Shown here one piece after another: positions 1,731 through 15,054 of a stretch of DNA of 64,000 nucleotides. A program made the position numbers and the translations under genes. Position 1 is the stretch's first letter, and each line of letters starts with the position of its first letter. The notes below the pieces were generated by a model. The model saw nothing but the letters and a program-made list of their open reading frames with translations, ran no database searches and was not told the DNA's origin. The DNA is from an uncultured beta proteobacterium (GTDB lineage: Bacteria; Pseudomonadota; Gammaproteobacteria; Burkholderiales; SG8-41), in assembly GCA_963828715.1 (NCBI GenBank), contig CAWHFX010000002.1, forward strand, positions 617,847-681,846, given 5' to 3'.

Positions 1731-2153
1731 TCAGCGTTGCCTGAACCTGCGCAGCGCTGTCAACTGTGCGGCGAGCGCGGCGATTTCCGCTTCTACTGCG
1801 GCAACCTCCTGTTTGTCGCGAGCGCGGCCGCGTGCCTCTTCCGCCTTTTTCAAGGCTTCGTTCGCCCGCGCTTCGTCGAGGTCCGCCCCTCGAATTGCCG
1901 TGTCCGCGAGAACCGTCACCACCGTGGGCTGGACTTCGAGCAGCCCTCCCGCAACGAAGATCAGATCTTCCTCCCCGCCGCCGGCCGGCTTGATGCGCAC
2001 GGCGCCCGCTCTGATGCGGGTGATGAGCGGGGTATGGCGCGGATACACGCCGAGCTCGCCCGCTTCTCCGGGCAGCACGACGAACTCGGCCTCGCCGGAA
2101 TAGATGCTCTCTTCCGCGCTTACGACATCGATGTGCAGCGTGGCAACAGCCAT
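1731..2153 (-). CDS. atpC: F1 ATP synthase subunit epsilon
   Basis: 140 aa. [54 protein letters not shown] is a typical epsilon beta-sandwich, followed by a helical A/E/R-rich C-terminus. ATG at 2151-2153. Confidence 0.9.
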
Positions 2154-2178
2154 GACTCGAATTCTCCGGATCGGGCGC

Positions 2179-3042
2179 TCAAACGGCAGCAGCGCCCCCG
2201 ACGATTTCGGCGATTTCGCGCGTGATCGCCGCCTGTCGGTTCTTGTTGTAGATCAGCGTCAGCTCGTCGATGAGAGCCCCTGCGTTGTCGGAGGCAGCCT
2301 TCATTGCGACCATGCGCGCCGCCTGTTCGGACGCCATGTTCTCGGCGATGGCCTGATGAATAAGCGCTTCGATATAGCGCGTCATCGCCGCGTCGATCAC
2401 CGTCTGCGCTTCCGGCTCGTAGATGTAGTCCCACAGCCCCTCCGGGGCGCCCAGCCGTTCTCCGGCGAGCGGCAGGAGTTGTTCGTTCACCGGCTCCTGT
2501 TTCATCGTGTTGACGAAGCGCGTATAGACCATCGAGAGACGGTCGATGCGCCCGTCGATGTACGCGTCAAGGATGACTTTGACGGCGCCCAGCAGCATCT
2601 CCATGACGGGCCTGTCGCCGAGCTGGGTCACGTATGAGACGACGTTGGCACCGAGCCGCTGCATGAAACCGAGCGCGCGTCCGCCGATCGCACACACGTC
2701 CACTTCGACCCCTTCCGTCTCCCAGCGGCGCATTTCCTGTAAAGCGAGCCGCAGCGCATTCACGTTCATCCCGCCGCACAGACCTTTGTCGGTGCTCACG
2801 ACGATGATTCCGATACGCTTTACGGACTTGCGCTGGATGAGAAACGGGTGGCGGTATTCCGGATTGGAATGGCTCATATGCGCCGCCAGATTGCGAATCT
2901 TCTCGCCGTACGGCCGGCTCGCACGCATTCGCTCCTGCGAACGCCGCATCTTCGATGCGGCCACCATCTGCATTGCGCGGGTGATCTTGCGCGTGCTTTC
3001 AACGCTGCGGATCTTGACGCGGATCTCTTTGGTGCTCGCCAT
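2179..3042 (-). CDS. atpG: F1 ATP synthase subunit gamma
   Basis: 287 aa with canonical gamma termini: [34 protein letters not shown]... and ...[25 protein letters not shown]. Confidence 0.92.
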
Positions 3043-3082
3043 TACCGTCGGTTCCTGTCTGCACGACCGAGTTCACACATCG

Positions 3083-3550
3083 TCAGGCGGTTTTTCCCGT
3101 GCTCTCGTTTCTAGTTTCTATTGACGCCTCGGGTGCTGCCGGGCTCGCGGGGCTCGACATCCGTGCCTGATCGGGTTGAATGACCCAGGAAATCGCGTCG
3201 AGCAGCGCCTGGTCGTCAACGGGCTTGCGCAAGAAGCAACGCGCATCGAGCTCGCGCGCGCGGAGGCGCGTATCGTCGTCGTCGCGCGCAGAAACGGCGA
3301 TGACAGGAATGGTGCTGCCGCGCGCCTTGAGCTCGCGCTGCACTTGCAGACCCGTCATTCGCGGCATCGTGATGTCAAGAAGAATACAGGCCGGCACTTC
3401 CGGTCCGAGCTCCTGAAGAAAGCGCTCCTGCGATTCGTAGACTCTCGGGGTGAAGCCGCCGGCGCGCATGAGTCGCGCGAGCCCCTTGCGCACGAGCTCG
3501 TCGTCATCGATGATGTATACGACACATGATTTGGCTGGCGCTGGCACCAT
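3083..3550 (-). CDS. stand-alone response-regulator receiver protein (CheY-like, no output domain)
   Basis: VYIIDDDELVRKGL...LLDITMPRMTGL...IPVIAVSARDD...FLRKPVD give the acidic pocket, phospho-Asp and conserved Lys. The tail is low complexity with no HTH. Confidence 0.85.
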   Translation of the reverse strand: MVPAPAKSCVVYIIDDDELVRKGLARLMRAGGFTPRVYESQERFLQELGPEVPACILLDITMPRMTGLQVQRELKARGSTIPVIAVSARDDDDTRLRARELDARCFLRKPVDDQALLDAISWVIQPDQARMSSPASPAAPEASIETRNESTGKTA

Positions 3551-11974: not shown

Positions 11975-11995
11975 GCAAGGACAAGGAGTCATGAC

Positions 11996-13537
11996 ATGCA
12001 ACTGAACCCATCCGAGATCAGCGAGCTCATCAAGAGTCGCATTCAGAACCTGGGCGGCACGCTCGAAGCGCGCACGCAGGGCACCGTGATTTCGGTGACC
12101 GACGGGATCTGCCGCATCCACGGGCTGGCTGACGTGATGCAGGGCGAGATGCTGGAGTTTCCGCACAACACGTTCGGGCTGGCGCTGAACCTTGAGCGCG
12201 ATTCGGTCGGCTCGGTGGTGCTGGGCCAGTATCAGCACATCACCGAAGGCGATACGGTGAAGACCACCGGGCGCATTCTGGAGGTGCCGGTGGGGCGGGA
12301 ATTGATCGGGCGGGTGGTGAACGCACTGGGCGAACCGATCGACGGCAAAGGGCCGATCGAAGCGAAAGAGACGGACGTGATCGAGAAGGTGGCCCCGGGG
12401 GTGATCTGGCGCCAGTCGGTGGCGCAGCCGGTGCAGACGGGGCTCAAAGCGATCGACTCGATGGTGCCGATCGGGCGCGGCCAGCGCGAGCTGATCATCG
12501 GTGATCGCCAGACCGGCAAGACCGCGGTGGCGGTGGACACCATCATCAATCAGAAGGGCAAGGACCTGATCTGCGTGTATGTGGCGATCGGGCAGAAGGC
12601 GTCCACGATCAAGAACGTGCTGCGCAAGCTCGAAGAGCACGGGGCGATGGCCTATACCATCATGGTCGCGGCGTCGGCCTCCGATCCGGCGGCGATGCAA
12701 TACATCGCCCCTTATTCCGGCTGCACCATGGGCGAGTACTTCCGCGACCGCGGGCAGGACGCGCTCATCATCTACGACGACCTGACCAAACAGGCGTGGG
12801 CGTACCGGCAGATTTCTCTGCTTCTGCGGCGCCCGCCGGGTCGCGAAGCGTATCCGGGCGACGTGTTCTACCTGCACTCGCGGCTGCTCGAGCGTGCCGC
12901 GCGGGTGAATCCCGAATACGTGGAGCGCTTCACCCAGGGTGAAGTGAAGGGCAAGACCGGCTCGCTCACCGCACTGCCGGTGATCGAAACCCAGGCGGGC
13001 GATGTGACCGCCTTCGTGCCGACCAACGTGATCTCGATTACCGACGGCCAGATCTTCCTGGAGACCGACCTCTTCAACGCCGGCATCCGGCCGGCGATCA
13101 ACGCCGGGATTTCGGTCTCGCGCGTGGGCGGCGCGGCGCAGACCAAGGTGATCAAGAAGCTCGGTGGGGGCGTGCGCCTGGCGCTGGCGCAATACCGGGA
13201 GCTCGCCGCCTTTGCGCAGTTCGCGTCCGATCTGGACGAGACCACGCGCAAGCAGCTCGAGCGCGGGCGCATGGTGACGGAGCTGATGAAGCAGCCGCAA
13301 TACGAACCGCTGCAGGTGTGGGAAATGGCGCTCACGCTGTTTGCGGTGAACGGCGGCTACTTCGACGACATCGACGTGAAGAAGGCGCTCGCGGCCGAGC
13401 GCTCGATGCGCGACTACATCAAGAACAAATACGCCGATCTCGTGCAGCGCGTCGAGGACACCAAGGACCTGTCCAAAGAAGACGAAGAAAAGCTGCAGGC
13501 CGCAATGAAGGATTGGAAGAATACGGCTACATATTAG
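11996..13537 (+). CDS. atpA: F1 ATP synthase subunit alpha
   Basis: 513 aa with Walker A GDRQTGKT and high-identity alpha motifs throughout. Confidence 0.97.
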
Positions 13538-13656
13538 AACCCCAAGTCGCACCGGTGAGCAGCGCGCCTGCGACAGGCTGTCGCCGCGAACGTGACATCC
13601 GAACGGCTCTCAGTATTGATACTGACTCGCGACGGGCAGTGCAGAAGGGAGTAGTC

Positions 13657-15054
13657 ATGGCAGAGACTCAAGCAGCAGGAACGATCGTGCAGTGCATCGG
13701 TGCGGTGATCGACGTGGAGTTTGCCCGTGAGCAGATGCCGCACGTATTCGATGCACTGACGCTGGACGCAGAGGATTCGGCGCTGACGCTGGAAGTGCAG
13801 CAGCAGTTGGGCGACGGCGTGGTGCGCACCATTGCGCTGGGATCGGCGGACGGGCTGCGGCGCGGGATGAAAGTGCTGAACACGGGCGCGCCGATCATGG
13901 TGCCGGTGGGCCCCAAGACCCTCGGGCGCATCATGGATGTGCTGGGGCGCCCGATCGATGAAGCCGGTCCCATCGGCGCAGAGAAAACCATGTCGATCCA
14001 CCGCGAGGCGCCCCAATTCGAGGAGCTCGCGCCGTCGCAGGAGTTGCTCGAGACCGGCATCAAGGTGATCGATTTGATTTGCCCGTTCGCCAAAGGCGGC
14101 AAGGTTGGGCTGTTTGGCGGTGCCGGTGTGGGCAAGACGGTGAACATGATGGAGTTGATCCGCAACATCGCGATCGAGCACGCCGGCTATTCCGTTTTCA
14201 CCGGGGTGGGGGAGCGCACGCGCGAGGGCAACGACTTCTACCACGAGATGAAGGACTCGAAGGTGCTGGACAAGGTGGCGCTCGTGTATGGGCAGATGAA
14301 CGAGCCGCCGGGTAACCGCCTGCGTGTGGCGCTCACGGGCCTGACGATGGCGGAGTTCTTCCGCGACGAAGGGCGTGACGTGCTGCTGTTCATCGACAAC
14401 ATCTATCGTTTCACGCTGGCCGGCACGGAAGTATCGGCGCTGCTCGGGCGCATGCCTTCGGCGGTGGGGTATCAACCGACACTGGCGGAGGAGATGGGCA
14501 AGCTGCAGGAACGTATTACGTCGACCAAAACCGGTTCGATCACCTCGATCCAGGCGGTGTATGTACCGGCCGACGACCTCACCGATCCGTCGCCGGCGAC
14601 GACCTTCGGGCACCTCGATTCCACGATCGTGCTCTCGCGCGACATCGCCGCGCTGGGCATCTATCCGGCGGTCGATCCGCTCGACTCGACCTCGCGCCAG
14701 CTCGATCCGCACGTGGTGGGCGAAGAGCACTACACGGTGGCGCGCCAGGTGCAGGCGACGCTGCAGCGCTACAAGGAGCTGCGCGACATCATCGCCATTC
14801 TCGGCATGGACGAGCTCTCGCCCGAGGACAAGCTGGTGGTCTCGCGCGCACGCAAGATCCAGCGCTTCCTGTCGCAGCCGTTCTTCGTGGCCGAGGTGTT
14901 CACCGGCTCGCCGGGCAAATACGTCTCGCTCAAAGACACGATCAAGGCCTTCAACATGATCGCCAACGGCGAGTGCGACGCGTTGCCAGAACAGGCTTTC
15001 TACATGGTCGGCCCGATCGAAGAGGCGTTCGAGAAAGCGAAAACACTGCAGTGA
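13657..15054 (+). CDS. atpD: F1 ATP synthase subunit beta
   Basis: In ORF 13318..15054. ATG at 13657 follows [30 protein letters not shown], Walker A GGAGVGKT and a DELSEED-like MDELSPEDK. Confidence 0.97.

Follow-up and report, generated by a model that had tools for sequence, protein, structure and literature searches.

A rearranged second F1Fo ATP synthase locus in an uncultured soil Burkholderiales bacterium, apparently homogenised with the canonical operon except for gamma and epsilon

How an F1Fo ATP synthase locus could come to lie in two pieces, with alpha next to beta and gamma next to epsilon, is the question raised by a stretch of 64,000 nucleotides from an uncultured beta proteobacterium (assembly GCA_963828715.1, contig CAWHFX010000002.1, positions 617,847 to 681,846; this whole stretch is called the window below). 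The plus strand of the window carries atpB-E-F-H-A-(119 nt)-D, and the opposite strand, ~6.7 kb upstream of atpB, carries response regulator-atpG-(25 nt)-atpC. An earlier reading of the letters alone (the sequence-only reading) took this to be a single, essential F1Fo locus that had recently been broken, with G and C moved to a separate transcription unit. We propose, with a probability of roughly 0.7, that the window instead holds a conserved second F1Fo gene set that is homogenised with a canonical operon by gene conversion, and that the only product peculiar to it is an alternative gamma-epsilon stalk. In its structural and evolutionary parts this account is very probably right; the regulatory-isoform mechanism offered further below is tentative.

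The split locus and the canonical operon

Throughout, locus 1 denotes the canonical operon outside the window and locus 2 the split set inside it; the gamma and epsilon of the window are termed satellite (sat), and canonical-type gamma and epsilon are termed G' and C'. Labels of the form L### stand for homologous contigs from metagenome and genome searches, and P#### for homologous proteins (or the contigs carrying them). Open reading frame (ORF) coordinates were taken from an ORF listing and families from Pfam and NCBIfam hidden Markov model (HMM) scans with curated cut-offs. The ORF listing and the HMM scans bore out the coordinates and the non-colinear layout given in the sequence-only reading (alpha adjoining beta, gamma adjoining epsilon), and its 119-nt and 25-nt spacers, 314-nt gap and convergent patatin gene were likewise as described (Table 1).

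All eight subunits scored above the canonical F-type equivalog cut-offs of NCBIfam (bits/cut-off: a 352.8/280, c 104.9/71, b 202.8/131, delta 165.6/115, alpha 814/484, gamma 449/372, beta 825/463, epsilon 189.9/135). Models of the 'alternate F1F0' type, or N-ATPase (TIGR03305, 03324, 03323, 03166, 03306, 03322, 03321), fell far under their cut-offs for F1 (beta 574/752, alpha 603/750, gamma 82/282, epsilon 24/100) and for Fo (a 55/302, c 21/131, b 47/225). Assignment to the N-ATPases was ruled out by these scores, the presence of delta, the different gene order and the lack of any recognised atpQ or atpR; in the window, the stretch from epsilon to a contains no additional genes for small membrane proteins. 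A Mycoplasma-type F1-like ATPase was also rejected, with scores of 307/520 for MSC_0619 and 425/570 for MSC_0618 and a full Fo set adjoining. The canonical colinearity atpIBEFHAGDC is absent from the window, in which alpha is followed by beta, gamma and epsilon are on the other strand and there is no atpI. A tblastn search of the 64 kb with the atp proteins of the window and of relatives found no further atp gene or remnant, and in the 119-nt and 314-nt spacers a more permissive tblastn search (word size 2, E up to 10) gave no credible gamma, beta or epsilon remnant.

The sequence-only reading had named a second canonical operon beforehand as the finding that would count decisively against it, and such an operon was found, in the order parB-atpI-BEFHAG'DC'-glpD-glmU. 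Contigs with this context came from a scan of metagenomes for delta, a fast-evolving subunit, and from exact beta, alpha and c-subunit matches. Spliced from overlapping contigs, locus 1 reads parA-parB-atpI-B-E-F-H-A-G'(295 aa)-D(463 aa)-C'(140 aa)-glpD-glmU, of which L083/L116 cover parA-parB-atpI-B-E-F-H-A and L112, L113 and L114 cover B-E-F-H-A-G'-D-C'-glpD-glmU; a more distant relative (L100, 123.6 kb) carries the full gidA-gidB-parA-parB-atp-glpD-glmU-glmS neighbourhood. In the cluster tables, a length of 978,880 bp was given as the longest contig for the window's gamma, epsilon, response regulator, alpha, beta and delta, and the same value was given for the exact canonical C', AtpI, ParB and GlpD and for a 220-aa member of the G' cluster. 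This identical value is strong evidence that both loci lie on one 978,880-bp molecule. With eight of eight genes in the window and the canonical markers assigned to the same 978,880-bp contig, locus 2 would be a second F-type locus that is not an N-ATPase.

The canonical gamma of this genome (P0268, outside the window) is represented solely by a 220-aa call, with its start at an internal codon (G' residue ~96) and its last ~35 residues in a shifted frame; the C', AtpI, ParB and GlpD around it are intact and identical to those of other assemblies. Canonical gamma thus appears to be disrupted in this genome, either as a pseudogene or through local assembly indels. Should the lesions prove real, the satellite gamma would be the sole intact one in this genome and would serve both loci.

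Age of the layout and near-identity of the shared genes

A comparison of synteny in relatives, as had been suggested from the sequence alone, was made by a scan with one genome per species that yielded 80 loci. The 77 relatives with a gamma at most 75% identical were all colinear (BEFHAGDC), and the only closer locus in that scan, L003 (gamma 80%), showed AI2E-RR-G-C, that is, an AI-2E family transporter gene (AI2E) and a response-regulator gene (RR) before gamma and epsilon. L108 (108.9 kb, of the same species as L003) carries D-A-H-F-E-B on the minus strand, with alpha directly then beta, and a divergent Ysc84-AI2E-RR-G-C on the plus strand; its identity to the window is 91% for alpha, 92% for beta, 63% for delta, 80% for gamma and 85% for epsilon, and its alpha-beta gap is ~32 nt, compared to 119 nt in the window. 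The same architecture was found on the P0142 contig, from a third lineage with a gamma 81% identical, and the RR-G-C side is covered by the P0126 contig, from a fourth lineage (86%). Since the layout is common to lineages in which gamma is only 80–81% identical and synonymous divergence (dS) is above 1, it is old, not recent. Contigs with the split locus often end in or near atp genes: two (P0142; JGI 3300071358, 3300071325) end within atpA, the P0126 contig ends before atpB and L001 ends within atpB. Near-identical atp repeats would cause such ends, which hint that the other lineages also carry two loci.

The satellite pair, too, is old. Gamma-sat is 67% identical to G' and epsilon-sat 72% identical to C', with a dS of 1.3 between the gammas and saturation between the epsilons, and from this identity and saturated dS the two satellite genes are taken to be old paralogues of G' and C', not relocated copies. 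Gamma-sat has an 8-aa deletion relative to G', and its divergence is spread unevenly, with 61–64% identity in the globular middle and 75–76% in the terminal helices. Epsilon-sat and C' are 86% identical in the N-domain (the beta-sandwich) and 48% in the C-terminal helical hairpin. The missing PF00401 match of epsilon-sat was considered as a lost domain and this was rejected, as the hairpin is full length but diverged, and it is this sequence divergence that accounts for the missing match.

In a neighbour-joining tree of 111 gammas with bootstrap, the satellite gammas formed a clade of 26 (including the window, L108 and P0121–P0144) with 100% bootstrap and a long stem of 0.098, and this clade joined, with 82% support, the canonical gammas from metagenome-assembled genomes of related Burkholderiales, among them G'. 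This grouping indicates that the satellite pair arose inside this group, by an old duplication or by transfer between close relatives, and not from an N-ATPase or a distant donor. For the window against L108, the ratio of nonsynonymous to synonymous divergence (dN/dS) comes to 0.091 in gamma and 0.057 in epsilon, which indicates purifying selection and that both genes are functional. As to how the order arose, the sequence-only reading had held that more than a single cut was needed, and we agree: a single inversion of RR...atpD was examined and set aside, since it would give B-E-F-H-A-D-G-C and leave the G/D swap unsolved, so the alpha-beta and gamma-epsilon adjacencies need at least two events. 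Its suggested route, duplication followed by reciprocal loss, survives in that a duplication was involved and fails in that G and C are not relocated operon copies.

These results bear directly on the claim that the window is the single essential F1Fo locus of this genome, recently broken, with G and C transferred to their own transcription unit. The window does hold exactly one copy of each of the eight genes, and the canonical gamma is known only from the truncated, frameshifted 220-aa call, such that atpG_sat may be the sole intact gamma. Against this, the ParB, AtpI, C' and GlpD of the canonical locus are placed on the same 978,880-bp contig; the same population contains complete canonical operons whose shared genes have 96–99.7% nucleotide identity to those of the window; gamma-sat and epsilon-sat are too far from the operon copies (67%/72%, saturated dS); and the layout is common to lineages at dS >1. 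A single, recently broken locus is consequently a poor explanation, which we consider quite improbable. The corollary that assembly of the complex would depend on two separately transcribed units is weakened by the existence of a second locus, but keeps some force if atpG_sat is the only intact gamma here.

The six shared genes show the opposite pattern to gamma and epsilon. Between the two loci the a, c, b, delta, alpha and beta genes are 99–100% identical, and across the canonical-context contigs the shared tracts of the window have 96–99.7% nucleotide identity; delta is 100% identical to that of the canonical-context contigs L083 and L112, and an identical atpE protein is present in both locus contexts. 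Between-locus dS (window, as locus 2, vs L112, as locus 1) is 0.016 for alpha, 0.009 for beta and 0 for delta, whereas orthologue dS (window vs the split locus of L108) is 1.07–1.87 for alpha, beta and delta (alpha 1.18). The paralogues are thus far closer than the between-species orthologues. Because the split locus predates the separation of the window from L108, alpha and beta paralogues that had not been homogenised should differ by as much as these orthologues; they do not, which points to recent homogenisation.

The limits of this near-identity follow the limits of shared homology. Homology to the canonical D-C' segment ends exactly at the atpD stop codon, and at the other end of this gene the first ~4 codons are unlike those of the 463-aa canonical beta while the remainder is 99.6% identical at the nucleotide level; the 119-nt spacer and these first ~4 atpD codons are unrelated to the canonical G'-D spacer. 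Gene conversion bounded by flanking homology accounts for breakpoints that lie exactly at gene borders, with spacer and first atpD codons unrelated, and gamma and epsilon, having no homologous flanks, would have escaped homogenisation. When alleles were compared with locus context in a variant table across 18 contigs, context-tied alleles were found only at the tract edges (9827–9833 and 13521–13537), and the interior was a mosaic. On these sequence comparisons, the six shared genes are best explained by concerted evolution, with gene conversion acting repeatedly between the paralogous loci to homogenise them. As another origin for the alpha-beta junction, a clean and recent loss of G' was tried and rejected, there being no gamma remnant and a 119-nt spacer unrelated to the G'-D spacer.

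Near-identical repeats of this kind are expected to give fragmented short-read assemblies with every hybrid path, and hybrid contigs were indeed observed. L112 joins locus-2 upstream DNA to G'-D-C'-glpD, L118 joins the atpI upstream region to the 119-nt junction, and L093–L095 join the 119-nt junction to C'; the hybrids match the window at 9588–15055, and all combinations of the two loci occur in short-read contigs. They may be assembler cross-overs in the near-identical repeats of 3.7 kb and 1.4 kb, or real recombinants. A series of stepwise losses in progress (A-G'-D to A-D-C' to A-D, from L092 and L093–95) was dropped, since L083, L112–L114 and L118 place these pieces in two contexts, with hybrids everywhere, and the pieces therefore belong to two loci.

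Because hybrid paths do exist among the short-read contigs of this population (L112, L118, L093–95), we considered whether repeats or a strain mixture had joined alpha to beta and beta to patatin in the window itself as an assembly artefact or chimera. However, L111, a 61.9-kb contig from another sample (JGI sample 3300044699) with frameshifts typical of long reads, is 98.9% identical at the nucleotide level to window 2664–18914 (16.3 kb, colinear) and spans atpG to past patatin, including the A-D and D-patatin junctions. The A-(119 nt)-D junction also occurs in L093–L098 and L118, with at least 7 contigs crossing it, the RR-atpG-atpC side is reproduced in L001 and L002, contigs from independent metagenomes, and the same architecture is present in other species (L108, P0142 contig). 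The junctions at 13537–13657 and 15054–15369, for which the sequence-only reading had asked for read evidence, are accordingly not artefacts, and we regard a chimeric origin as close to negligible.

A further explanation is that no genome carries both loci and that two co-occurring strains or species, one canonical-only and one split-only, recombine. Contigs of both contexts come from shared samples or projects (L001 and L083, for instance, from 3300025930), and hybrid contigs would equally come from a strain mixture. This scheme conflicts with the 978,880-bp contig value shared by the markers of both loci and with a split layout that is older than the divergence from L108 (dS >1), as a presence/absence polymorphism would need to last that long with the shared genes 99% identical. 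We therefore judge it to be very unlikely, and favour two loci in one genome.

Possible role of the satellite stalk and features of the window

In the account that we prefer, the host would be an uncultured soil Burkholderiales bacterium with two F1Fo gene sets, of which the window carries the second. Locus 2 would comprise an atpB-E-F-H-A-D unit and a divergent unit that ends in the AI-2E transporter, the receiver protein, atpG and atpC. Both sets encode the same proteins for the six common subunits, which the cell would have no means of telling apart, and besides dosage locus 2 would add only an alternative stalk: the satellite gamma-epsilon pair would assemble with the alpha3beta3, delta, a, b2 and c-ring that the two loci share. 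ATP hydrolysis is inhibited by the epsilon C-terminal helices in those bacterial enzymes that have been characterised. Epsilon divergence is concentrated in just these helices, which suggests an isoform that balances synthesis against hydrolysis differently, and the satellite pair, presumably co-transcribed with the receiver protein, would then change the strength of the epsilon block on ATP hydrolysis.

The surroundings of the satellite pair are conserved and may bear on when it is expressed. The receiver gene lies directly before atpG in the window, L001, L003, L108 and the P0126 and P0142 contigs; the AI-2E transporter gene is kept at its position in every satellite locus seen; and the pair always follows these two genes on the same strand with gaps of 23–40 nt. 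A Pfam scan of the 155-aa receiver protein found no output domain. Downstream of atpC, a DUF3141 gene is present in the window and in three other lineages (L108, P0126 and P0142 contigs), beyond which those three carry pta, ackA and genes for two CoA-transferase subunits, with a pyruvate formate-lyase gene further on in the P0142 contig only. The window's species has a small Ion_trans_2 gene and a 194-aa ORF between atpC and DUF3141; the window's DUF3141 gene, at 1–495 (minus strand), runs off the left edge and continues in L001 at 9636–11081, and the corresponding stretch from DUF3141 onward in L108 is 11556–16083. Conditional expression, plausibly under low oxygen or fermentative conditions, would suit the receiver gene, the fermentative neighbours and, in this species, the PAS kinase; such a conditional, low-oxygen use of locus 2 is speculative. 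Put together, we tentatively suggest that this soil Burkholderiales clade maintains one F1Fo core with two interchangeable stalks, with gene conversion keeping both fitting and the satellite stalk induced by condition. Replacement of the canonical stalk by the satellite one may already be under way in some strains, this one included.

The simplest alternative is that locus 2 is redundant, contributing dosage only or decaying, and that gamma and epsilon have diverged by neutral drift within functional limits. Six of its eight products are identical to those of locus 1, the distinct role proposed here is read from sequence, and one survey lists whole-locus duplicates in Pelobacter carbinolicus and Photobacterium profundum for which it gives no known special role (PMC4154653). 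Yet the layout and the RR-G-C linkage are kept across at least four lineages, dN/dS is 0.06–0.09 on satellite gamma and epsilon, the long stem of the satellite clade indicates a burst of change followed by conservation, and the gamma that looks damaged here is the canonical one, not the satellite. Redundancy is thus the less likely outcome by some distance, although the most credible of the competing explanations.

Several observations weigh against our interpretation. Co-residence depends on the shared 978,880-bp value in the cluster tables; the disruption of G' depends on one 220-aa call and could reflect assembly indels. A canonical locus in the L108 and P0142 lineages is hinted at only by contig ends at repeats. 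The C-terminal domain of epsilon-sat is full length in the alignment, which leaves altered regulation plausible only. In L108 and the P0142 contig, SDR/Ysc84 genes occupy the place of the PAS kinase, and this lack of conservation weakens the regulatory part of the proposal. A promoter and terminator scan of 1200–16000 returned counts equal to the shuffled expectation. Finally, a pure dosage role for locus 2 is a live alternative.

Table 1. Positions, strands and supporting matches of the atp genes and adjoining features in the window.
Feature	Position	Strand	Support or remark
atpC_sat, F1 epsilon, 140 aa	1731..2153	-	PF02823; NF001847
atpG_sat, F1 gamma, 287 aa	2179..3042	-	PF00231 full length; NF004144
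Stand-alone receiver-domain response regulator, 155 aa	3083..3550	-	PF00072 at residues 11-120; 40 nt upstream of atpG
AI-2E family transporter	3574..4770	-	PF01594; 23 nt before response-regulator gene, same strand
MetA-pathway-like outer-membrane protein	4755..5867 (longest ORF)	-	PF13557; elsewhere called 297 aa, start near 5647
PAS-PAS histidine kinase, divergent from atpB	5935..9063	-	PAS_3/PAS_4, HisKA, HATPase_c
Locus-2-specific divergent intergenic region, kinase to atpB	9064..9809	.	Without atpI; includes 94-aa ORF
atpB, Fo a subunit, 267 aa	9810..10613	+	PF00119; NF004477
Putatively homogenised tract 1 (atpB codon ~5 to atpA stop)	9822..13541	+	96.3-99.7% nt to canonical locus
atpE, Fo c subunit, 91 aa	10659..10934	+	PF00137; NF005363
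atpF, Fo b subunit, 156 aa	10960..11430	+	PF00430; NF004411
atpH, F1 delta subunit, 178 aa	11438..11974	+	PF00213; NF004402
atpA, F1 alpha subunit, 513 aa	11996..13537	+	TIGR00962
Alpha-beta spacer, 119 nt, in place of gamma	13538..13656	+	Read directly
atpD, F1 beta subunit, 465 aa	13657..15054	+	TIGR01039
Putatively homogenised tract 2 (atpD codon ~5 to stop)	13670..15055	+	97.1-99.6% nt to canonical locus
Non-coding gap atpD to patatin, 314 nt	15055..15368	.	Without epsilon remnant
Patatin gene, convergent with atpD	15369-16547/16733	-	392-aa lipoprotein call or 454-aa ORF

Some gene calls differ between assemblies. The longest atpB ORF begins at 9729, and the 267-aa call from 9810 is that of other assemblies, including L112; the PAS histidine kinase is called elsewhere as 952 aa with a start near 8792. 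The MetA-like gene and the PAS kinase are also found in L001 and L111, and the MetA-like gene is present in the P0142 contig and absent from L108. A 94-aa ORF at 9294–9578 (plus strand), also called in L111, takes the position of atpI in the canonical locus; neither Pfam nor NCBIfam gave a match for it, and it shows no similarity to the canonical AtpI. The 392-aa patatin lipoprotein matched a 1.7-kb contig that stops short of atpD. Predicted RNA structure in the 119-nt and 314-nt spacers was not above that of shuffled controls (z 0.33 each).

Beyond the atp genes, a 6S RNA gene (RF00013, 65.7 bits) lies at 18049–18227 (minus strand) and adjoins zapA/zapB as called in the matching contig L111. 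A cobalamin riboswitch (RF00174, 94.6 bits; 18953–19165, plus strand) is directly upstream of a TonB-dependent receptor ORF (19180–21369, plus strand; Plug and beta-barrel), and the two together resemble an ordinary BtuB-like B12 uptake unit. From ~23.3 to 46 kb, mostly on the minus strand, there is a long biosynthesis cluster of polysaccharide, lipopolysaccharide (LPS) or O-antigen type, with a GT9 heptosyltransferase, several GT2/GT4, a Wzy_C ligase, Polysacc_synt_2, a DegT aminotransferase, Bac_transf, a radical-SAM/SPASM protein, a methyltransferase and an ABC exporter, as well as several ORFs of 350–560 aa without a Pfam match.

Comparison with known F-type loci

It was previously shown, in a survey of 2,248 bacterial strains, that 98.6% of Betaproteobacteria have the standard gene order (PMC5709465). 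Split operons in that survey are essentially cuts in the standard order, such as the separation of beta-epsilon in Cyanobacteria and Bacteroidetes and of F1 from Fo in Alphaproteobacteria, and the sole other adjacency is alpha-beta in Tenericutes (PMC5709465). Compared to the canonical operon, the window shares eight subunit families, the B-E-F-H-A order and six near-identical genes, but lacks atpI, has no gamma inside the operon or epsilon after beta, and its context is not parAB/glmUS. Like the order-preserving splits it has more than one transcription unit, yet the division into gamma-epsilon and a-c-b-delta-alpha-beta is not among the patterns reported (PMC5709465).

Second F-type sets are known in other forms. 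The N-ATPase, which has the order atpDCQRBEFAG, no delta, and atpQ/atpR present (Dibrova et al. 2010, PMC2881411), occurs in Burkholderia (PMC5376962), and it resembles locus 2 as a second F-type set beside the canonical operon, in Burkholderiales and with a non-standard order. It differs in that N-ATPases are a separate, laterally transferred clade, whereas alpha and beta of the window are near-identical to the canonical copies of the host. Whole-locus F-type duplications other than N-ATPases, described for Pelobacter carbinolicus and Photobacterium profundum by Koumandou & Kossida 2014 (PMC4154653), likewise provide a second complete ordinary F-type complement, and in P. profundum, according to the same authors, some subunits look like species-specific duplicates and others group elsewhere, which resembles partial homogenisation. 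These duplicates are described there as whole loci, whereas the copy in the window is rearranged, in two divergent units and conserved in a clade. The same source also lists stray extra copies, of epsilon in Thiobacillus denitrificans and Acidithiobacillus spp. and of gamma in Aquifex aeolicus and A. ferrooxidans (PMC4154653). These resemble the satellite genes in placing gamma or epsilon outside the main operon, including in a betaproteobacterium; as listed there, they are single genes, some probably pseudogenes, while the window has a pair, beside the other six genes and under purifying selection.

Our literature search, with incomplete coverage, returned no description of a conserved, rearranged second locus homogenised except for gamma-epsilon. 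Judged from its sequence, then, the window appears to be a paralogous F-type locus with a combination of three features that we did not find described: a near-invariant order is broken into alpha-beta and gamma-epsilon adjacencies, six genes are held identical, and only the central stalk differs. In a recent database of rotary ATPases, ATPase clusters that were exact copies were taken for misassemblies and left out (PMC11738941). Since repeats fragment assemblies and such a pipeline discards copies, counts of such loci may be too low. Were the two stalks to give enzymes that differ in regulation, they would provide a natural experiment on the properties that reside in gamma-epsilon alone, because the cell itself holds everything else constant. 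The nearest functional parallel is in plants, where the paralogous chloroplast gamma isoforms ATPC1 and ATPC2 serve one core with different regulation. This is an analogy of function only, as those isoforms are eukaryotic, nuclear and redox-regulated via a loop of gamma, with no evolutionary or genomic relationship to the satellite pair; if our proposal is true, locus 2 would be a bacterial counterpart of the tissue-specific gamma isoforms of plants.

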